From NCBI GenBank assembly GCA_951406725.2, contig OX597833.1:60698001-60762000 (forward strand): 64,000 nt of DNA. Direction: 5' to 3'. A model generated the notes under the pieces. That model worked only from the letters and a program-made list of their open reading frames with translations, had not been told where the DNA came from and made no database searches. Source of the stretch: Octopus vulgaris. Taxonomy: Eukaryota. Position numbers and translations under genes: made by a program. Each line of letters begins with the position of its first letter. Within the stretch, counting starts at the first letter, position 1. Shown in pieces: positions 13,700 through 63,339 of the stretch.

Positions 13700-13918
13700 T
13701 ATTTCTTTACTACCCACAGAGGAGACAAAGAAGGACAGACAAACGGATTAAGTCGATTACATCGACTCCAGTGCGTAACTGGTACTTATTTAATCGACCC
13801 CAAAAGGATGAAAGGCAAAGTCGACCTCAGCGGAATTTGAACTAAAAACGTAGCGGCAGACGAAATACAGCTAAGCATTTCGCCCGGCGTGCTAACGTTT
13901 CTGCCAGCTCGCCGCCTT
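13700..13918 (-). mobile_element. SINE family 1
   Basis: Reverse complement of the family consensus, flanked by ATATATATACCT on both sides. Confidence 0.8.
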
Positions 13919-13919
13919 A

Positions 13920-14131
13920 TATATATATACCTACAGTATATATACCTAATATATATACCTACAGTACCAGCCAAATATATATACCTACAGTACCAGCCAA
14001 ATATATATACCTACAGTACCAGCCAAATATATATACCTAATATATATACCTACAGTACCAGCCAAATATATATACCTAATATATATACCTACAGTACCAG
14101 CCAAATATATATACCTACAGTACCAGCCAAA
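13920..14131. repeat. Minisatellite of 26-bp TATATATACCTACAGTACCAGCCAAA and 13-bp TATATATACCTAA units
   Basis: Directly visible tandem array that begins in the SINE flank duplication. Confidence 0.85.
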
Positions 14132-14691
14132 TCTAGTCCAGTATGTGTGTGTGTGAAGACCAAATAAATAAGTGATTTCTTACAATGGTAAAATGGAATG
14201 AAAAGCAATCTCCATTATAGTGAAGAATTTCCAGACTAGTACAGTTTTTATATTCCAATAATGATTATCTTCCCTATCTTCATGATGATGAAGAATAATA
14301 AGACTACTACTGTTTTTCATTACAATAATTATTTCCTCTCGTTAATTACAGAGGATTCAATAAGTGGGGCCATGTAGCTACTGACCCCTTTACTGCTGAA
14401 CTTCAGAGAATCTCCTACCTTTCTATTTCTAACCTGTTCACACCTGTACCTACCTTTAAATCCTTATTACCCGCTGCTTTTAATTAACAAGAAGTTATCA
14501 CTTAAACCTGCCATTAATTCGTTTGACGACTTTCAAGCATTTGGGACAGTTTTAATGAAGAATAAAAAAAAAAACTATGATGATGACTCAAAAAAAAAAA
14601 AACATATACAAAACCACAATGGCTGACAAAAATAACAGAAAACAAAAATTACGAAGCAACATCAAGTGTCTCAGTGTTAGATGAAAGCAGT

Positions 14692-14769: not shown

Positions 14770-14877
14770 CTGAAGTAGAGGAGAAAAAACATTAAGAAAT
14801 GAAGGTCCATTTAGTGTATATAAATAACAGATAGAAAAAACAATTGTTTTTCTGTGGGTACAAAAACAGCAAATATA

Positions 14878-15232
14878 TCATCATCATTATCATCGTTTAA
14901 CGTCCGTTCTCCCTGCTAGCATGGGTTGGATGGTTCGACCGGGGATCTGGGAAGCCAGAAGGCTGCACCAGGCTCCAGTCTTATCTGGCAATGTTTCTAC
15001 AGCTGGATGCCCTTCCTAACGCCAACCACTCCGTGAGTGTAGTGGGTGCTTTTTATGTGCCACCGGCACAGGTGCCATGCGAGGCTGGCAACGGCCACGG
15101 TCGGATTGGTGTATTTTATGTGCCACCGGCACGGAAGCCAGTCGAGGTGGCGCTGGCATCGGCCACGAGTCAGATAGTGCTTTTTACGTACCACCAGACC
15201 AGGGATCCTGGCTGGTTCAATTCGATTTCGAT
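14878..15232 (-). mobile_element. RTE 3'-tail repeat, family 3
   Basis: (CAT)n tail followed by the reverse-complemented family consensus with three internal modules. Confidence 0.75.
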
Positions 15233-15314
15233 ATATAGATATATATAAAATCAATTTTAACACCAGTGGTCTAGCATGTAAAAAAACTGAGATTCAGTAA
15301 ATAGTATTTCATAC

Positions 15315-15528
15315 ATAAATATACGAGGGAATTTTTTTAACCACTATGTGGAAACCCTTATGCTAGAAGAAGATCCGCTATGGTCTTCTCCAGAAAGATT
15401 TAGCACACCAGAAATGTAAGCGAGCAAGACAAATGAAGAAAAATTCTTAGTGGTTAAGACCATACCATATCTTCTTCTAGCATAAGGGTCTCCACATAGT
15501 GGTTAAAAAAATTCCCTCTTATATTTAT
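15315..15528. repeat. Fold-back element, ~70-bp arms, adjoining (TA)n
   Basis: 15315-15387 is the near reverse complement of 15456-15528. Confidence 0.75.
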
Positions 15529-16270
15529 ATATATATATACACACACACATATATAAAGGAATACCAAAAATGGGATAAGAAAGCAAAACATCCAGACAGA
15601 TGATGCAAAAAGACAAGGATGGGTCATTCGAAGTTTTCTTTCTTCAGTTGAGTTCCAGATTATCTTTGCAATTCCGGCTGTTATAATTGAGATTGCTCCA
15701 ATCTGGCCAGCCCCAAGGAAAAACTAAGCTAAGAGCACTAGATTCCTTAGAAGAAAACAGCGAATGTATATGAAAACAAGGACAGAAAAAATGGAGAAAT
15801 GGTACACAAACACAAATGCAAATAAAAGACATTAACAACAGGTGTCTTTCGAAGCAAAGCCTTATGGCAGTGACATGGGAGATGACAGGTATAGGGAGGA
15901 ATAGAGATGATGCACGGATGGTAGTCAAACCAAGAAAGAAAGGTTAGGCTTGAGGGGACAAACAAGGACAGACACAGGGATTTAAGTCAATTACATCGAT
16001 CCCAGTGCGTAACTGATACTTAATTTATCGACCCTGAAAGGGTGAAAGGCAAAGTCAACCTTGGCGGAATTTGAACTCAGAACGTAACGGCAGACGAAAT
16101 ACGGCTACGCATTTCATCTGGCATGCTAATGTTTCTGCCAGCTCGCCTGAATGACATACCTGATGGAAAATTACTTTGAATTATTTTTTTTTTAGTAGTG
16201 CAGCATGTCTGATGGTGAGTGATGCCTCATGTGGCCCACCACTTGAAAATTTTTTCCATGACTGCTTTAA

Positions 16271-17545: not shown

Positions 17546-17769
17546 GGAAAAATAACAGCACCCTTGATTCTTTATAGGGTTTTGATGACTGGTGGGAAGA
17601 AGGATGGTTTCAATAACCATTTAAAGGGAACTTGAGACAGAGAAAGAAGGGTAAAAGTTATCTTCAGATTGGAGATCTGATTTGAATGCTTGAAACAGAG
17701 GTGACTTCACCTACTCTGCATGACAGGTATTTTTTGCTTTCGGGTCTATTCTATGACATCTAGGTAGTC

Positions 17770-18220
17770 ATCATCATCGTTTAATGTCCGCTTTCCATGC
17801 TAGCATGGGTTGGACGATTTGACTGAGGTCTGGCAGACCAGATGGCTGCACCAGGCTCCAATCTGATCTGGCAGAGTTTCTACAGCTGGATGCCCTTCCT
17901 AACACCAACCACTCTGAGAGTGTAGTGGGTGCTTTTACATGCCACCAGCATGAGGGCCAGTTAGGTGGAACTGGCAACGGCCACGCTCAAATGGTGCTTT
18001 TTATGTGCCACCTGCACTGGCAACGACCTCACTTGAATGTTTTTTCAAGTGCCATCAGCACAAGTGCCAGTAAGGCGACACAGGTAACGATCACACTTGA
18101 ATGGTGCTTTTTACGTGCCACCGGCATGGAAGCCAGTTTGTTGCTCTGGCAACGATAACACTCAGATGGTATTCTTAGCACTCCACTAGCACGGATGCCA
18201 GTCCTTGAATTTGATTTCGA
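17770..18220 (-). mobile_element. RTE 3'-tail repeat, family 3, inverted relative to 17045-17545
   Basis: Family consensus on the minus strand. Confidence 0.75.
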
Positions 18221-19551: not shown

Positions 19552-19850
19552 CTGAAAGACACGCAGAATTTTGTTTTATATATACACCCACCCACACACA
19601 CTTATATATATAAATGTGCATGTGTGTTTATAAATATATATATATATATATATATATCAGAAACATTGTAGAAACATTGCCAGATTAGACTGGAGCCTGG
19701 TGCAGCCTTCTGGCTTCCCAGAACCCCGGTCGAACCGTCCAACCCATGCTAGCATGGAGAACGGACGTTAAGCGACGATGATGATGATGATGATATCAGA
19801 AATATTAACTTTCTAAATATCTCATAGAGATATGTACGGTGGTGGGGTGG

Positions 19851-20147
19851 TAGAGTGGTTGTATACTGTCAACTTAACGTGACAGTAAGGGAATTACACC
19901 ACCGCTGTTTAGCCCTAGGAAGCATCGACGCTTCCTGTTGGCCTCGACACATTTCCTGTGTCCTTATATATTTACGAAGGGGAGACAGCTATTTGCCTAG
20001 CTGTTGGGAGTATTTGTCTCCCCTTCGTAAATATATAAGGACACAAGAAATGTGTCGAGGCCGACAGGAAGCGTCGATGCTTCCTAGGGCTAAACAGCGG
20101 TGGTGTAATTCCCTTTACTGTCACGTTAAATTGACAGTATACAACTA

Positions 20148-20152
<5 letters not shown>
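19851..20152. mobile_element. Near-perfect fold-back of a Penelope-like terminal unit (137-bp arms, 27-nt spacer) ending in (TA)n
   Basis: 19851-19987 is the near reverse complement of 20015-20152. Homologous arms at 55363-55500 and 63185-63326 lie next to hammerhead motifs. Confidence 0.75.
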
Positions 20153-20198
<46 letters not shown>

Positions 20199-20548: not shown

Positions 20549-21700
20549 GCTGGAGTTATAAAAATACCTGATTTACAATGCTGACCTTTGAAAAGTTAGT
20601 GTGTAACTTCGAATACCATGAAGAGTGAAACATAATTCATTCCTTGTTCCATGTTTAAATTTGTTTATAATTATAAAATATTCATTATTTATACTCTACA
20701 AATTGAACTGCAAATTTATATAATGTCGATCATCCATTCATACATACATTGCATACATATATTCATTATATACATACATAACATACATACATCACACATA
20801 CATCACATACATACATCACATACATACATTACATACATACATCACATACATACATTACATACATACATCACATACATACATCACATACATACATTACATA
20901 CATACATACATCACATACATACATTACATACATACATCACATACATACATCACATACATGCATCACATACATGCATTACATACATACATCACATACATAC
21001 ATCACATACATACATTACATACATGCATCACATACATACATTAGTGTGTAACTTCGAATACCATGAAGAGTGAAACATAATTCATTCCTTGTTCCATGTT
21101 TAAATTTGTTTATAATTATAAAATATTCATTATTTATACTCTACAAATTGAACTGCAAATTTATATAATGTCGATCATCCATTCATACATACATTGCATA
21201 CATATATTCATTATATACATACATAACATACATACATCACACATACATCACATACATACATCACATACATACATCACATACATACATTACATACATACAT
21301 CACATACATACATTACATACATACATCACATACATACATCACATACATACATTACATACATACATACATACACATACATACATTACATACATACATCACA
21401 TACATACATTACATACATGCATCACATACATACATTACATACATACATTACATACATACATCACATACATACATTACATACATACATACAAACATTAGTA
21501 CATTACATACATTACATACATACATCACATACATACATCACATACATACATTACATACATACATTACATACATACATCACATACATACATCACATACATA
21601 CATTACATACATACATTATATTCATACATACAAACATTAGTACATTACATACATCGCATACATATATTACATGCATGCATTTCATACGTACATTACATAC
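20549..21700. repeat. Duplicated ~200-bp unique segment (copy of 12746-12950) followed by expanded (CATA/CATCA/CATTA)n, tandemly re-duplicated with a 445-bp period
   Basis: 20596 onward equals 21041 onward. The ORF-track artefacts at 20651 and 21096 differ by 445. Confidence 0.85.
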
Positions 21701-33189: not shown

Positions 33190-33412
33190 CTTTCGTCCGT
33201 GGCCGTTTGCCAGCCCCGTCTGGCACCTGTGCGGGTGGCACGTAAAAAGCACCCACTACACTCACGGAGTGGTTGGCATTAGGAAGGGCATCCAGCCGTA
33301 GAAACACTGCCAGATCAGACTGGGCCTGGTGCAGCCTTCTGGCTTCCCAGACCCCAGTTGAACCGTCCAACCCATGCTAGCATGGAAAACGGATGCTAAA
33401 TGATGATGATGA
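33190..33412 (+). mobile_element. RTE 3'-tail repeat, family 3 (one module)
   Basis: Family consensus with (TGA)n tail. Confidence 0.75.
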
Positions 33413-34151
33413 TCTCCTCAACTTATGACCTATGTGACTTACGAACATCCGCACATACGTCCACAAAAAAAAGGAAATAAAAAGATAAACAAATACATAA
33501 AAAAACTGATTTTCAGACATTGAGCAGGTTGCGTGTGCTATAACTATGGCAGCATCTGGCAATGCAGGCCTCCCTCAGATCCATGCATCCACTGCCTGCC
33601 ACCATCTCTCATTCAGTCGCTTTCAAGCATCAGTTGCGTCTGAATGAAAATAGTGTTGAAAAAATATAAATCTGACATATGACCTGTCAGTCGGAAGGGA
33701 ATGAAGTCGTGAGTCAAGGAGAAGGTGTTATATATAATCATCATCATTGTTTGACCATGGTCGAGACAATGGAATTTACTATGCTACGCCAGACTTCACG
33801 GTCCATCATAGCATGGGGTAGAAAGGGCTCCTTAGCCGTAGTGAAGGCAATCTGTCTAGGGAGATAACCTTACAATAAATCACTCGGTCCGTAGCTTAGA
33901 AATACTTGGTTGACGTCCAGCGGGAACAGCTTTGTTTCATGGAGGAGGAAAGATCATCTTTAGTGCTTGGTTGTACAATGCTTTCCAATGTGTGTAGTAG
34001 CGGTGCGCGCACACATTATTAGCCATTTGAAAAGACTATGGAATTTACAATTAACTGCACCAGGGTTATATATAAATGTGTGCGTGCGTGTGTGTAAGTA
34101 TGGTGGTTTCACAATGGTGTGTTTGCAGTTAAGTAAAAAAAAAAAAAAATC

Positions 34152-37348: not shown

Positions 37349-37652
37349 TATTTCATTTTTGGATTTGGTTTGCAAGATTCTTTATATGAGTTCGTGTGTT
37401 GAAGCATATTCTGTTGTATCTGGGGAGAGCAGTTTTCTTTTTGTGCCTTATAATTCAACACATTCACCGGTAAAATTTCCACTTGTTTCTTATTTTTATT
37501 TTCCTAAAATTTTCATGGCGTCTTGCAACCTTTTCAATAGTCTTGATGCAACGAAAATTTTAGGAAAATAAAAATAAGAGATAAGTGGAAATTTTACCAG
37601 TGAGTGTGTTAAATTATAAGGCACAAAAAGAAAATGACTCCCCAGACACAAC
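37349..37652. mobile_element. Second copy of the fold-back element at 3999-4329
   Basis: Same two ends with a central deletion. 13-bp TSD AAAACTGAAATTA (37336-37348 / 37653-37665). Confidence 0.75.
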
Positions 37653-42980: not shown

Positions 42981-43786
42981 ATAATATATATAGTCATGGC
43001 CAAATGTTTGGAACATAGGTCTGAAAGTTAGAATTGAACCTTTGGATCAGTTATTAGGTAAATATATCTCTACGTTGTATATGGATCGAATTGTACCTGG
43101 GCATAGTTTTAATTACAGTTAGGTAAGGGTTGGTGACAGGAAGAGCTCCTAGCTGTAAAATACTGCCTGCAATAAGTATCCTGAGTGGGTACATATATGT
43201 AACAGTGCCCTCACCTTTTTCCATCATGTCCTTACTGTGACTACTACACTTTCACTGCTAATTAGGTCACCTTAGGAGCAGAAGTTGTTGATTACTTCTA
43301 CAGAAACTGAAAGAAACCTGTCATATATATGTTTATTGTGAGCGGCCCTGTATTTCCTGGTAGCAAAAAAAACCTGTTCTGGCCTGTCTTTCATAATTTA
43401 ATCCCTCGTCTCCAAGCATAAAGCCACTTCTCTATCTTGATTGTGACCCCATTCAGTCAAAAGAAATTTTAGTCTTGCGACCTACATGGCAACCTCACCA
43501 ACACTGTGCCATGGAAAAAAAAGCATCCGCTACACTCTGTAAAATGGTTGGCGTTAAGAAGGGCATCCAGTCGTAGAAACCACGACAAGGCAGACACTGA
43601 AGCATGATATGGTCCTCCAACTCTGCGGATCTTGTCAAATCATCCAAATCATACCAGCATGGAAGAGAGATGTTAAAAGGGTGATGATGATATGTGTGTT
43701 TGTAACAGAAATCAAAATATAAAGCAGAGTTTTACATTTTAATGATAAATCTCAGAGCGAGTTATAAACAGTAGCAGCAACACATC

Positions 43787-44122
43787 GCAACGTATATTTG
43801 CCATTTGAATATGGCTAACCCCTAAGGGTGGATGCTACTGTAGTTTGTAGCCCCAGGAGGACACCTCCTCCAGCTGGCTATAGACACACTTTCTGTGCCC
43901 TATTAGTATTTGCGAAGGGAAGCCATCCTTCCCGTCTTCAACTTATGATACACACGGACTCGATTTTCAGAGTATTGACCCATCATCGGCGTGTGACAAT
44001 CATAGTGCAACGTATATTTGCCATTTGAATATGGCTAACCCCTAAGGGTGGATGCTACTGTAGTTTGTAGCCCCAGGAGGACACCTCCTCCAGCTGGCTA
44101 TAGACACACTTTCTGTGCCCTA
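43787..44122 (-). mobile_element. Penelope-like or retrozyme-like partial tandem: identical 116-bp direct repeats (220-bp period) around a hammerhead
   Basis: 43787-43902 equals 44007-44122; hammerhead motif in the spacer. Confidence 0.7.
43951..43995 (-). ncRNA. Minimal type I hammerhead motif with two deviations
   Basis: CACACG-CCGAUGA-U-GGGU-CAAU-ACUC-U-GAAA-AUCGA-GUC^-CGUGUG. Perfect 6-bp stem I; U4->C and a stem III mismatch. Confidence 0.55.
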
Positions 44123-45923
44123 CATTTTATATTATCCAAAATGCTACAGTAACAGAATTTCTTGACAAATTTTATTTAAAAAACGCTCCAAATTACAGGT
44201 CCTCGAGTCACTGCAGCTCCCTTTACACACACACACTGAAGTATATATACAGCAGAAATGAGATCCAGTCCAAGCTTTGTGAAGTGGACAGCAATAGTGA
44301 GTATGAATGCATGTGTTTTCAATGGAAACGTGGGAAATTCTATCAATAATACTTCCTCTCATATCAAACAAAGGTGACATCATTCGCGGAGAATTATTTA
44401 TTCTGAGTAAAAGAACCGGTCGGTCGGCTTGATTGAATTTATGGCAGCTATTTTGTATTGTACTCTGTTGTATGGTGTTCACACTTCAATATCCTTAAGA
44501 ACGGCCATTTCCAGGATATACTGAATGCGTCAGATCCACAAAAGACACAAGATATCTTCTTCTAGTTCTAAATCAAAACTCATCATTGGGTTCTTTGATA
44601 TGAACTGACAATAAAGAACAAACTGTCCATTATGATGAAGCTGTAAATACAGAGTAACAGCATCAACGTTAGTTTGTGTCCAAAAAATAGTTATATAGAC
44701 CGAAATGAGAACTTAATATAGTTTTTCACTGTATATATATTATTAGCGTCAATCTATTATAATTACAAATAAAAACGATATATGATAGAGTAAATTGTCA
44801 TTTATGGACGGAACACACTCTCTCATGACTGGAAGTCCGGTTGGTTATATTTCAGAAGAAAATATTTCGAGATAATTTGTATATGATTATATTTGAGTTA
44901 CACGCATATATACATAAATAGACAAATTTTGTTAACATGTTTAAAAAAACAGGGTTGTGTTAGCATGAAACAATAATATCGATGGCTCGAGAAACATTGT
45001 TCTAAACAAACTGTATAGAGAACATACAACGAAATTAATTAGGAAAAAAAAATTAATTAGTAAAAACCTAAACTTACTAAAATAATAAAAGACTAGAAGA
45101 CACGCATGTCTTGAAAACATTTCAAACATATATAGGGTGTGTGTAGATACATATTTATATGTCACTATTCATATCTGTATACAAATATTTTGTATTCTAA
45201 TGTTTTTAAATTATCCCTATTCTATGCCTTAGAATAAATTAGAATTAATGTTATTGATTAATGTCCAGATAATTACTAAATGTCATTTAATTATTACAGT
45301 AGTGGTGGTTATTAAATTAAAATCTATAAAAACATGAAGCTGTCTTGAAATAACGTAGTTGTCGGCAGAAAAAGATGAGAATGGCATGGCTGGAGAGTCT
45401 TTCATCGTGTTTGTTCAATGAGGGTTAATTTGGGGGTTGGACAAATATAGACGATCCACGAATTGCTAAAGAATTCTTCAAACGTCAAAAATTGAGAATG
45501 AAAGACGACGAGTGACAAGTGAAGGCGGACAGGAGACATTGAGTGGTCACTGGATCAGCTAGAGATAACAGCTATCTTCCCTCCAATCATACCATACTGA
45601 CAGGAGTAAAACACAAAAGAGGACAAACACATAAGACAATGTTGTCAAAATTACAATAAAAGACAAGAGGGTTACGGCTGGAACACCTCTGATCCAAAGA
45701 TTATTGTATCAAGGGGGCCTATCAAGGCTGACCTTGGGCTAAACAACAAAATATATTTGGTTTATAAACAATAATACTATTTACATTTGGGTTTGTTGTT
45801 GCATTTCTTTAAGGAAATATAATGTGAATTACTATTTTTTTCTGAAAAGAAGATAATATGAGTTATATTCAAACTAAATAATTAGTAATTAATAATTAAT
45901 TGAGAGAAATCTATTCGGATTAC

Positions 45924-55323: not shown

Positions 55324-55366
<43 letters not shown>

Positions 55367-55526
55367 GTTGTATACTGTCAACACAACGTGACAGTCCCGT
55401 AAAGGGAATCACACCACCGCTATTTAGCCCTAGGAAGCATTGATGCTTCCTGTCGGCTTTGACACATTTCCTGTGTCCTTATATTTGCAAAGGGGAGGCA
55501 AGCACTCCTGCTAGCTAGGATTAGCT

Positions 55527-55568
55527 CCTGGAGACATGTTTCTGGGTCTTGCTCGTCATCAGTCCAGG
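55527..55568 (-). ncRNA. Minimal type I hammerhead motif in a Penelope-like unit (55363-55597)
   Basis: CCUGGA-CUGAUGA-C-GAG-CAAGA-CCC-A-GAAA-C-AU-G-UC^-UCCAGG. Perfect 6-bp stem I, palindromic ACAUGU stem III, weak stem II. Confidence 0.65.
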
Positions 55569-55597
55569 GTAGTAAGTCCTGCTACCTCTTTGCAAAT

Positions 55598-58724: not shown

Positions 58725-59495
58725 AAATCTGCCTCAAGTCTGCTTCGTGTTTATCTTAGGTCTGCTTCAAGTTAGCCTCCAGTATTCATCAAATCTGCCT
58801 CAGGTCTGCCTCATCTACCCTAAATCTGCCTCAGGTCTATTTCATGTCTGCCTCAAAGGTGCTTCAGTCTACCTTAAGTCTGCCTCAAGCGTACCTCAAG
58901 TCTGCCTCAGGCATACCTAATATCTACCTCAAATGTGCCTCAAGTCTACCTCAAGCCTGCTTCAAGTCTACCTCAAGTCTGCCTCAGGTATTCCTAATAT
59001 CTACCTCATATGTGCCTCAAGTCTACGTCAAGCCTGCTTCAAATCTACCTCAAGTCTGCCTCAGGTATACCTAAATATCTACCTCAAATGTGCCTCAAGT
59101 CTACCTCAAGCCTGCTTCAAGTCTACCTCAAGTCTGCCTCAGGCATACCTAATATCTACCTCAAATGTGCCTCAAGTCTACCTCAAGCCTGCTTCAAGTC
59201 TACCTCAAGTCTGCCTCAGGTATTCCTAATATCTACCTCATATGTGCCTCAAGTCTACATCAAGCCTGCTTCAAATCTACCTCAAGTCTGCCTCAGGTAT
59301 ACCTAAATATCTACCTCAAATGTGCCTCAAGTCTACCTCAAGCCTGCTTCAAGTCTACCTCAAGTCTGCCTCAGGTATTCCTAATATCTACCTCATATGT
59401 ACCTCAAGTCTACCTCAAGCCTGCTTCAAGTCTACCTCAAGTCTGCCTCAAGTATATCTGAAATCTGCCTCAAGTCTACCTTGAGTTTACCTCAA
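58725..59495. repeat. Hierarchical minisatellite: 11-bp (CTCAAGTCTAC-like) to 77/78-bp to 232-bp period
   Basis: Repeated ORF artefacts start at 58933, 59010, 59165 and 59242 (offsets 77 and 232). Confidence 0.85.
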
Positions 59496-61539
59496 GAAAC
59501 TTGAGCTTATTCATAATTTCAAGGTTCTTAGGTGACTGAAAATACAGGTCAGACTCCCCACCTCTCATTAACTGGACACTAATTTATCACAGGGTTAGAC
59601 CCCTCCCCCACCACTCCTGTTTAGTGTTTTCAATTTTGTATTTTTAATGTCAGATCTAGCATTTAACAAAAAAAAATAGCAGTTTGAAAAAATATATCTA
59701 GCATTTTTCTCTGATCATGACATTTCCATAATAGTTGCCCTTTTTTCTTTCTCTTTTTCTACTTTTTAAAAAAGTATTTTACAGCCAAATTTCAGTATTA
59801 TTGGTTATTGTTGAATTTTTTCTTTTACTTTCATGATATTCCAAATAAAAAGTAACCGAGAAATTTATGGTCACCTTTTCAACTGTGACTAAGTACAAGG
59901 AATGGAGATAACTCATGTAAGCACCTGAGTTACCCACATGGAAAAATTTTATGACTATAGGATCTAATAATACCAATGTAATGATGGGGGTTTTCCAGAA
60001 ATTAAAAGGGGAATTTCACATAATATTAATAATAATAATAATGAAAGTATTGTATACAGTGCTCAGGTGCACCACAACTTGTCAGAAAGTGAGTATAAAG
60101 CATATGCAGTAATGTACAAATGTCTGGAAAGCGAACAGTGTATGAGTCAGATACATGCTTGCGTGTGTATGGAGGGGAGAAAATCAGGTGTAGTGTTGGC
60201 GAATCTCAGGAAACATGGAAGTTTTGAAGGATGCAGTGCTCCGACAACTAACAACTTATGCCAGCAGTTTGTTCCATGCTTCAGCAACTCTTAGTGTGAA
60301 AAAATGTTTCCTAAAGTCTTGGGAGCTGTGTTGTTTTCTGACTTTGTAAACATGCCTATGAGTGTTAGACGGGTGGAGTTTGAAATTTCTTCTATCTAGA
60401 GATATGTTACTCTTTACAGTTGGCAATATTCCACACTTGGGCTGAATGCCTGCACAGGAACTTAGAATTTTTAGTATCTGAAGACTATAAATTATTCTCT
60501 TACTTCTTAACTAGATAAACAGTCTATAAGTAGCTTCATCCTACTTACTATCAGTGATAAGGAGCCCTTAATCATTGTAAATTCTTGTGTATCCAGGTGA
60601 CTGTCAATAGATCCGATTGTATGTCGAATTATAAGCCAATGGTTTGATTTACAAACTCACTTCCAAACTACAAGTACTGTATATTTGTCCATTTAAATAT
60701 ATGGATAGTATTAAATTGAATTTCAATTGAAACAGTTTTTCCACAGAGGTCAGCTTTACCTTTCATCCTAAGGCAGCAAGTTGGCAGAATCGTTAGCACA
60801 CCAGGCAAAATGCTCAGCAGCATTTAATCCATTTTTATGTTCTGAGTTCAAATGCTGCCAAGGCTGGCTTTGTCTTTCACCCATTCAGGGTCAATAAAAT
60901 AAGTACTAGTTGATAACTAGGGTCAATGAACATCCTGACCTTGTGCCAAAATTTGAAACAAATATTAATAGTTAAATGGAAAATTTTGCAATATGTCTAA
61001 AAAGATTTCTTCTAAGCAGAACTCATCATCATCATCATCATCATTATTGTTTAACATCCATTTTCCATGCTGGCATGGGTCGGATGGTTTGACTGAAGTC
61101 TGGAGAGCCAGCGGTTGCAGCAGGCTCCAATCTGATCTGGCAATGATCAGGATGAAAGGTAAAGCTAACCTCTGTGGAATTTGAACTCAGAATGTAAAGA
61201 CAGACCAATGCCACTAAGTATTTTACCCGGTGTAGTAACAATTCTGCCAGCTCACCACTTCTATTTATCTATCAATATTGCCAAATTCAACTACAGCTGT
61301 TCAGCAGTATGCGTAGAATCAAATTGAAACTGAAAAACAAAATGCAGCTTCTTGTGCTTGGATCAAAACTTTCTGTAAAATATGGCCCCAAAAAATATGA
61401 CAAATGTTGCAAAAACTTCAGCCTTTCAAAGCCTATATTTAACAAGATCGGGACCCTGAATGCATACAAAAGTCAAGACTCAGAGACTGCCGCTGAAAAT
61501 GAACAAATCAGTGGAATTATTTGGAAATTATTTTTCAAT

Positions 61540-62645
61540 CATCATCATCAGCATCGTTATCTTCATTATTTAACGTCCATTGTCCATGCTGGCATGGGTT
61601 GGACGGTTTGATTGGGCTGGTATGCTAGAAGACTGCACCAGACTCTAGTCTGATTTGGCATGGTTTTCTATGTCTGGATACCCTTCCTAACACCAACCAC
61701 TCTGAGAGTGTAATGGGTGCTTTTATGTACCACCGGCACGGGTGCCATTTGCATGACACCGGGGTGTGTTTATGTACCACTAACATGGGTTCCAATTTGT
61801 GTGACACTGGTGTCTGCAACAACTGCAATTTTGCTTGGCTTGATGGGTCTTCTTCTCAACCAGGACATAATACCAAAGGTCTTGGTAATTGCTTCCGTGA
61901 AGCCCAACACTCGAAAGGAACTCTGCTACTTTGCCTACATGAGGCCCAACACGCGAATGGAACTCAGCTACCTTGCTTCTGTGAGGTCCAACACTCAAAA
62001 GGAACTCAATCACTTTGCCTCCTTGAGGCCCAGTGCTTGAAAGGAACTCAGCCACTTTGCCTCTGTGGGGCCCAATGCTCGAAAGGAACTCAGTCACTTT
62101 GCCTCTGTGAGGCCCAATGTTCAAAAGATGTTTTTTACGTGCCACCAGCATGGGGGCACTTGGTTTCACAGGTCCTCTCAAGCACAGCACATTGCCTAAG
62201 GTCTCGGTCACCAGTCATTGCCTCCTTGAGGCTCAAAGTTCAAAGATCATGCTTCACTACCTTATCCCATGCTTTCCTGGATCTACCTCTTCCACAGGTT
62301 CCCTCCACAGTTAGAGCTCAGCACTTCTTTACACAGCTGTCCTTGTCCACACACATCACATGACCATACCAGCGCAGTCGTCTCTCTTGTTCACCATATC
62401 TGATTCCTCTTATGCCTAACCTTTCTCTCAAGATGCTTACACTCTGTTAAACATGCACACTGACATTGCACATCCAGTGAAGAATACTGGCTTAATTTCT
62501 TTCAAGCCTACACATGTCCTTGGCCATGCAGCATAGCTGTTTGCACACAGGCATCAGACAATCAGCCTTTCACTCTGAGAGAGAGAGGCCCTTTGTTGCC
62601 AGCACGGGTAGGAGCTCTCTGAACTTTGCCTAGCCTAATCTTATT
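61540..62645 (-). mobile_element. RTE LINE 3' kilobase with a 39-bp tandem array (~61890-62125) in its 3' UTR
   Basis: Minus strand encodes LRERLGIRGIRYGEQERRLRWYGHVM...TVEGTCGRGRSRKAWDKVVKHDL with stops. Part of the array is copied at 63419-63515. Confidence 0.8.
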
Positions 62646-63115
62646 CAATGTTGAATGTAATTAAGGAATGTAAATAAAAATTTTTAATAATTTAGCTAGC
62701 ATATCTGTGTTGTCAAAATTGCTGACTGTTTTATTAAAGATAGAAAATGCCATTATCAAAACAATGAGAAAAACTATTGATAAATGTTACTTCACTTGAT
62801 GGTAAATAATTATTTGCTCTTAACAAATTGGGCTTCTAGACTACTTGTCTAAACCATGTTTTCTTTCCTTTTCTTTCTTACTTTTATTTATGTTATATGT
62901 TCTTGATAAAGTAGTTGTATGCTGTCAACTTAATTTGACAGTCCCATGAAGAGAATAACACTACTGTTATTTAGCCACTACTGCATAAATCTCTCTGAGA
63001 GATTTAGAAATGCATCATTTTTATTTTTTAAATCAGTGAATGTATTTCACTAAAATAATTATATGTTTACAAGGGCTAGATAGGCATCTAGCATCCAACT
63101 AGCAGGCCATGCTAC

Positions 63116-63158
63116 TCCAGACTGAAGACGAGCAATGACTCAGAAACTAGTCTCTGAA
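63116..63158 (+). ncRNA. Minimal type I hammerhead motif in a fold-back Penelope-like unit (62906-63326)
   Basis: CAGA-CUGAAGA-C-GAG-CAAUGA-CUC-A-GAAA-C-UA-G-UC^-UCUG. Palindromic ACUAGU stem III; predicted cleavage after 63152. Confidence 0.65.
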
Positions 63159-63339
63159 TGCTGGCTTAGCTGGGTGGAGGTGCTTATCTCCCCCTTGTAA
63201 ACATAAGGACGCATGAGATGTGTCAAGGCTGACAGGAAGTGGTACTGCTTCCTAGGGCTAAATAGCAGTAGTATTATTCCCTTCATGGGACTGTCACATT
63301 AAGTTGACAGCATACAACTACTTTATATATATATATATT

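Follow-up and report, generated by a model that had tools for sequence, protein, structure and literature searches.

The window (the whole stretch of Octopus vulgaris DNA analysed here, 64 kb in length) carries four insertions of one element, a single copy from each of the families that we term A1, A2, A3, and B (Table 1). The family B insertion consists of two segments, one stopping at end 1 and the other at end 2 (the two fixed points at which genomic copies of the element stop), and is bracketed by a 9-bp duplication; its head-to-tail join would reflect re-initiation at end 1 within a single insertion event. Because unit positions 1 to 131 are absent between the segments, this copy has a period of 221 nt, and the 5′ partner of its rod arm lies in the spacer that it has lost. 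The hammerhead motif that an earlier note on this DNA had placed in the B copy is confirmed, as are two copies of the adjoining domain (43787–43899 and 44007–44119) and two A copies with hairpins in the same order as in B (55363–55568, minus strand; 63118–63322, plus strand). The copy at 20015, previously read as a hammerhead unit, lacks both the hammerhead and hairpin 3; it belongs to the head-to-head A3 insertion, whose minus arm stops at end 2 (19795) and whose plus arm stops at end 1 (20153). Nor is the unit about 220 nt long, as first proposed: natural tandem copies give 352 nt (B) and 350 to 352 nt (A). The hairpins described in the B copy are present, but the element continues to 43741, through an overlooked tail that contains the 3′ arm of the best-covarying helix.

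Table 1. The element in the window: parts of the family B copy and the other insertions (fold and hammerhead parts are predictions)
Feature	Position	Strand	Remark
Family B insertion	43741..44122	-	two head-to-tail segments; 97.7–100% identity to family majority
B segment 1	44122-44007	-	unit 236 to end 1; partial upstream domain repeat
B segment 2	44006-43741	-	unit 132 to end 2
B type I minimal hammerhead motif	43949..43995	-	
B hammerhead stem I	43990-43995 / 43949-43956	-	
B hammerhead core CCGAUGA	43983-43989	-	U4C
B hammerhead stem II	43969-43982	-	
B hammerhead predicted cleavage	after 43957	-	
B 3′ arm of hammerhead-bearing long rod	43906..43922	-	CCCTTCGCAAATA motif
B hairpin 1	43883-43899	-	predicted fold
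B hairpin 2	43849-43879	-	predicted fold
B helix P, 5′ arm	43833-43841	-	predicted fold
B hairpin 3	43818-43829	-	predicted fold
B hairpin 4	43800-43815	-	predicted fold
B single-stranded stretch up to end 1	43787..43799	-	end 1 is the inferred first reverse-transcription start
B tail, end 1 to end 2	43741..43786	-	
B helix P, 3′ arm	43768-43776	-	in tail
B hairpin 5	43751-43761	-	in tail
Target-site duplication, downstream copy	43733..43741	-	TAAAATGTA
Target-site duplication, upstream copy	44121..44129	-	TAAAATGTA
Family A1 copy	55359..55587	-	unit 126 to end 1, on (TA)n; hammerhead 55527-55568
Family A2 insertion	62905..63326	+	near-full unit 62976-63326; hammerhead 63118-63156
A2 inverted 5′-truncated arm	62905-62976		part of insertion 62905..63326
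Family A3 head-to-head insertion	19795..20153	both	hairpin 3 deleted; truncated before hammerhead

Comparison with Rfam, as the earlier note had proposed, gave 51 matches in the window, all below the gathering score, with no relevant family and no hammerhead match at E ≤ 1 among them. Weak RNA-model matches at 45689–45820 of the window (E 0.024) and at a locus elsewhere (L369; E 0.076) were treated as chance. The window also contains minisatellite arrays (20753–21500, 58725–59550, 61882–62146, and 13911–14135, with repeats of 13, 11, 42, and 13/26 nt, respectively), long near-perfect inverted repeats that are MITE-like (15311–15532 and 37469–37598; sub-threshold Rfam matches), and several abundant SINE-like families (e.g., at 13720–13930, 14872–15079, 17756–17962, and 33324–33413).

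Across the genome, at least six families (A1, A2, A3, B, C, and D) keep the length, the hammerhead, and the fold of the unit at 55 to 67% identity between groups. Natural tandem copies place unit length at 348 to 364 nt (350 nt in A1, 352 nt in A2 and B, 348 to 352 nt in C, 362 nt in D, and 364 nt in a relative of A3). Global identity is 76% between A1 and A2, 58 to 62% from A to B or C, 65 to 67% between B and C, and 55 to 59% for D; shuffled sequences give 48%, and since all of these values exceed it, we regard families A, B, C, and D as homologous. Tandem runs reach 3.6 units in D, most copies being partial tandems or monomers, and the unit holds no open reading frame for a reverse transcriptase (RT) plus GIY-YIG, by which an autonomous Penelope-like element (PLE) is recognized. 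Evenly sampled DNA totalling 400 kb contains three insertion loci, which extrapolates to about 20,000 in the 2.8-Gb genome (227 contigs), with a Poisson range of about 4,000 to 60,000. First-look candidates from the genome searches (2,035 for B, 2,499 for A1, 2,443 for A2, 2,736 for A3, 3,189 for C, and 1,211 for D) are not copy numbers: the A sets overlap, and the best 40 per search were scored. Judged by the identity of their top-scoring copies, D (99.2%) and B (97.4%) are similar in age. The B unit is covered by contigs from four runs of presumed RNA, although 0 of 24 runs are recorded as RNA, and this coverage says nothing on transcription, ends, or circles. Beyond this genome, the hammerhead pattern matched 77 metagenome stretches, 0 of which scored with the RNA model.

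A type I hammerhead motif is present in each unit family, with stems I to III covarying around a fixed core; stems I and II vary among families yet remain paired, which bears out the covariation previously described for stem I. The stem II pair next to the core is C-A in A1, A2, and C, C-U in B, and U-U in A3, a canonical pair (G-C) being found only in D; the mismatches reported earlier hold as C-A in A1 and A2, whereas the U-U of B is a single-copy variant in a family whose majority has C-U. Stem III inserts comprise CATG, CATGCATG, CTAG, CTCGAG, CCTAGG, and CGCG, with CTGCAG in an older B relative. The palindromic stem III proposed before is borne out: 173 of 195 motifs have a perfect one, with several sequences represented. 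In the window B copy the palindrome is broken, and the hammerhead of this copy shows three differences from the family majority. That palindromes have replaced one another again and again suggests selection for dimer pairing, for which a rationale has been published (PMC4209133). Core variants, passed over in the earlier note, are U4C in B (37/37 aligned segments) and A3, and U3-A8 in D. U4C reduces activity in vitro yet permitted viroid infectivity (PMC3088659), and eight of nine dimers of Xenopus retrozymes failed to cleave (bioRxiv 10.64898/2026.07.22.740005).

The same core variants recur outside the units: U4C appears in young copies of the PLE P2 as well as in families B and A3, and is fixed in several young lineages, one of them an autonomous PLE; an older B relative has the canonical core (cores compared: L171 for P2, L217:5340, and families B and A3). 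U3-A8 is common to the autonomous PLE P1 (L094) and the youngest unit family, D (L390–L449). The octopus Hydra-1 hammerhead given in supplementary material to PMC8557442 differs from the unit hammerheads.

Independent folding as circles predicts one common plan for the majority sequences of four families and for a natural unit of D: the hammerhead lies at the tip of a long rod whose 3′ arm is the CCCTTCG motif; hairpins 1 and 2 follow; helix P then closes a multiloop that contains hairpins 3 and 4 together with 22 nt of single strand; and further hairpins lie in the tail and spacer. Circular folds have z values of -6.1 to -10.4 against 40 shuffles each, and in all 5 families compared the ribozyme strand is predicted to be the more stably folded of the two. 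When 16 copies of A alone are used to train a covariance model, it finds C at 55 to 77 bits, D at 58 to 60 bits, and B at 54 to 58 bits, in agreement with the claim that A and B share the domain. The “little primary identity” ascribed to A and B was, however, overstated: a sequence-only HMM from the same A alignment finds B at 23 to 30 bits (and C at 28 to 48 bits), and global alignment of A with B gives 58 to 60%, versus 48% for shuffles.

Two-sided changes occur in 18 of 38 pairs among 27 distinct copies (model-fitted alignment) and in 17 of 38 pairs among 12 distinct copies with A3, B′, and D added. Neither count is reached in any of 500 shuffles, and 93 to 95% of cells pair, versus 32 to 46% in slid controls, with the qualification that the alignments (A4 and A5) were fitted to the structure and that both controls ignore the kinship of copies. 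Because of this disregard for relatedness, each family's high-probability pairs were also projected through a sequence-only alignment: all 12 ordered comparisons among A1, A2, B, and C lie above the null (P ≤ 0.016), as do six of eight with D (P ≤ 0.014), the projections from B to D and from C to D being nonsignificant (P = 0.19 and 0.07). One-sided changes do not single out the RNA strand, because G-U (108) is not favoured over A-C (98) in these non-independent counts. Covariation is strongest in helix P, two-sided in 5 to 6 of its 8 pairs, whose 3′ arm pairs from the tail and which encloses end 1; next come the inner stem of hairpin 2 and hairpins 3 and 4, with hairpin 5 weakest. The covarying hairpins of the earlier note are upheld by the 17 of 38 pairs, with two exceptions. 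Hairpin 1 hardly covaries, being conserved in sequence (A, B, and C lack any two-sided change, and adding D brings one), and 14 of 19 A3 loci have lost hairpin 3 (2 intact, 3 unreadable, the query itself being without it), a family that spread in its absence. In the openly accessible literature, we found no covarying domain of this kind and no cephalopod retrozyme; the units may be catalogued in Dfam or Repbase as unknown repeats.

The two stopping points of genomic copies, end 1 and end 2, lie 43 to 62 nt apart and account for 131 of the 149 A1, A2, B, and C segments and for 92 of the 98 from D; in the tail-query set, 30 of 30 D end-2 segments stop at the same base, on a simple repeat. The queries set the required reach of a hit, which biases the ratio of end 1 to end 2 and leaves the sharpness of the ends unaffected. 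End 1 falls in a homologous alignment column in A, B, and C, and for every family each of the two ends is placed within the domain or on its border. Copies end on (TA)n or AT-rich microsatellites in 86 of 92 cases in D, 30 of 41 in B, 20 of 38 in A1, 12 of 23 in A2, and 4 of 29 in the older C. The 5′ ends are scattered (5′ truncation), with partial tandems and inverted upstream arms, and show no clear peak at the cleavage site (2/149 in A1, A2, B, and C; 6/98 in D). Many segments are longer than one unit, 35 of 149 by >20 nt (A1, A2, B, and C) and 49 of 98 by >10 nt (D); either a circle or a multimeric transcript could be the template for such copies. Loci with copies in both orientations combine end 1 with end 2 in 28 of 37 cases (A1, 9/9; B, 11/15; C, 5/7; A2, 3/6) and, in D, in 18 of 22 and 18 of 19 (36/41). 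Two fixed ends, 5′ truncation, more-than-unit copies, and one end per arm are together the signature of PLE internal initiation. In D, 5′ ends and inversion points (L390–L449) cluster at predicted hairpins (unit positions 20–27, 83–87, 223–228, and 301–309).

Some units are interrupted by a 1.61- to 1.69-kb element that adjoins the 5′ side of the hammerhead and has one ORF1-like frame, an AATAAAG tail, and a 15- to 20-bp duplication. Its frame has a zinc-knuckle match below the cut-off (E 0.004), and ZCCHC3-like neighbours at 0.90 provide a lead. Of 30 loci found by the insert's 3′ end, 20 have a unit after the insert; of 30 found by its protein, 23 have a flanking unit (19 on both sides). The two sets overlap in several loci. 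Hosts include A1, A2, A3, and a B relative, plus a D relative identified by junction and model matches. Insertion has recurred, since inserts in B-type hosts nest among those of A1 hosts in a tree from which one row (L310) was left out. The composites are themselves mobile: one has an inversion inside the insert and arms that still stop at end 1 and end 2 (L218), two are truncated inside the insert (L215 and L216), and others are in tandem (L328). Movement of the composites as wholes argues for a signal in cis, located 3′ of where the element inserted. HAL1 (“half-L1”) and target-specific elements of the Tx1 clade offer precedents for an ORF1-only makeup, a zinc knuckle, an AATAAAG-type tail, a 15- to 20-bp duplication, and one site in a multicopy target; the difference is that the target here is a retrozyme, the composite then moving by the PLE route. 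This ORF1-only LINE-like element is seen at one site in five unit families (L139:1380–1496, L203–L218, and L296–L329) and also in 1.8-kb tandem arrays without units (L326 and L327). One insert (L208) carries at its 5′ junction a sequence resembling the 5′ end of U1 snRNA.

Insertion ends and covariation support the earlier view of the units as non-coding, hammerhead-bearing mobile RNAs with a conserved structured domain, and we are highly confident in assigning them to a published class, the animal non-LTR retrozymes (non-autonomous PLEs). It is also likely that they form a retrozyme lineage copied in trans by a PLE RT-endonuclease that recognizes the fold downstream of the ribozyme, and this fold is probably the PLE initiation signal. 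A tandem copy would be transcribed, and its hammerheads would pair via the palindromic stem III and release monomers, which may circularize. A PLE protein would then bind the multibranch of hairpins 1, 2, and 4 and helix P and cut both strands of an AT-rich target; on one of these strands cDNA would begin at end 1, within the single-stranded stretch that helix P closes, and on its partner at end 2. Reverse transcription would run 5′-ward through the ribozyme and around the unit until drop-off or a template switch at a hairpin.

An unlikely but serious alternative accepts the element class and holds that the fold is kept for RNA stability, circles, ribozyme control, or RNA-to-RNA copying, with the RT reading a short motif near the ends. 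It would fit a unit that is folded throughout, rod and spacer hairpins far from the ends included, and held at 348 to 364 nt; published retrozymes do accumulate as self-paired circles (PMC7229834), and the resident autonomous PLEs examined move well without the fold. Against it, a 1.65-kb insert breaks the unit length and parts the rod arms in composites that keep both ends, and the helix with the most two-sided changes is the one that encloses end 1.

An RT recognition site, as the earlier note suggested, accords with the position of both ends in every family, but the domain is absent from the resident autonomous PLEs examined. The genome is rich in young autonomous PLEs whose ends likewise fall on (TA)n. 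P1 (L094) has an 811-aa frame in copies 98.7% alike, P2 (L171) a 775-aa frame in a 4,271-bp tandem (99.5%), and the young P4 (L475–L481) a 1,312-aa frame with a long asparagine-rich region; by motif, the cysteine linker of P1 and P2 is like that of Neptune or Nematis. The coding region of P1 and P2 forms two overlapping frames (about 450 to 500 aa, then 775 to 811 aa), which suggests an intron or a frameshift, and P4 has a divergent hammerhead-like core just before its start codon. Searches of P1, P2, and P4 in full (blastn, HMM, and both covariance models) and of partial 3′ ends of three more PLEs did not find the domain, and P1, P2, and P4 were rejected as donors of the units by way of their pseudo-LTRs (pLTRs), having no homology to it in these searches. 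The proximity of B to P1 (L003) and P2 (L005) is explained by shared (TA)n targets, and an 11-nt match between C end 1 and the P1 pLTR is within chance.

That the units are truncated pLTRs of another, unfound autonomous PLE seems very improbable. Such an origin has precedent in Xenopus, where 24 of 57 retrozyme families have a counterpart among catalogued transposons, in nearly every case in a PLE pLTR (bioRxiv 10.64898/2026.07.22.740005), and has room in a genome with at least six PLE families, the loci examined being top-scoring candidates. However, copies running past the tail always return to spacer and hammerhead, and PLE coding fragments are rare beside units: 105 loci of A1, A2, B, and C yield 3 separate insertions with one nearby (4 loci, overlapping) and 56 D loci yield 3, all carrying their own, different ends where readable. 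Equally improbable is that the compensatory changes arose from DNA-level template switching or conversion between inverted arms, with no selection on an RNA fold: D inversion points do cluster at hairpins (5′ ends near 20–27, 83–87, and 223–228) and the comparison of G-U with A-C is flat, but the arms of helix P lie 60 nt apart, spanning two other hairpins, the hammerhead stems covary around a fixed core, and the ribozyme strand is the more stable in every family folded.

Returning to copying in trans by a PLE, we further propose, tentatively and at somewhat less than even confidence, that the units represent an old, self-standing lineage of PLE satellite RNA, with a telomerase-RNA-like fold offering two internal starts to a telomerase-related RT, no sequence shared with its helper, a ribozyme repeatedly tuned down, and a portable cassette carrying a 1.65-kb gene, and that it is the specific target of an ORF1-only LINE derivative; if so, that derivative is a parasite of a parasite. 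The mapped genomic ends give direct evidence of animal retrozyme integration by the PLE route, for which co-occurrence and pLTR similarity had been the previous grounds, and the composites reveal a cassette able to carry gene-sized cargo. PLE RTs are the closest retroelement relatives of telomerase, and the available literature records one family tested in vitro for RNA choice. If the fold is indeed a PLE copying signal, that signal becomes directly testable: six natural variants of a 150-nt fold, with starts mapped to the base, and the near-identical young D copies (99%) constitute a ready mutational map.

Animal non-LTR retrozymes are non-coding repeats of 150 to 450 bp, each unit carrying a single type I hammerhead; they occur in tandem or scattered, pair extensively with themselves, and have been proposed to be non-autonomous PLEs (PMC7229834; bioRxiv 10.64898/2026.07.22.740005); units measure 350 to 390 bp in mussel and 330 and 350 bp in axolotl, one of the latter with U-U at the base of stem II. 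The octopus units are alike in being non-coding, 348 to 364 nt long, and self-paired in their predicted fold, with a type I hammerhead. They differ from retrozymes as portrayed in the accessible parts of those reports, where sequences are species specific and folds are drawn from single sequences, in that six families have one covarying fold, two initiation ends are mapped within it, most copies are scattered partial tandems, the PLEs examined yielded no matching pLTR, and a coding insert occurs inside the unit. With minimal PLE hammerheads, the octopus motifs share a short palindromic stem III, an extra nucleotide after A9, and (in family D and P1) the U3-A8 core variant, and dimer cleavage and circular templates have been proposed for those hammerheads as we propose them here; the octopus motifs stand apart in that stem II is short (3 bp) and sits on a mismatch, and in that several young families are fixed for U4C. 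A close parallel is Poseidon of Anolis carolinensis (PAc), in which two internal starts delimit a tail, both strands of an AT-rich target are extended in vitro, and the required RNA lies 3′ of a hammerhead whose catalysis is dispensable for insertion in vitro (PMC11167929). PAc is autonomous, with its signal in the first 172 nt of the ORF, a tail of 30 to 40 nt, starts without target homology, and no covarying structure reported in the main text (PMC11167929), whereas the octopus units are non-coding, have a tail of 43 to 62 nt and a covarying predicted fold, and may use AT microhomology of 2 to 4 nt. The pattern of tails and inversions described for PLEs (PMC8557442) matches that of end 1 and end 2 in the octopus units.
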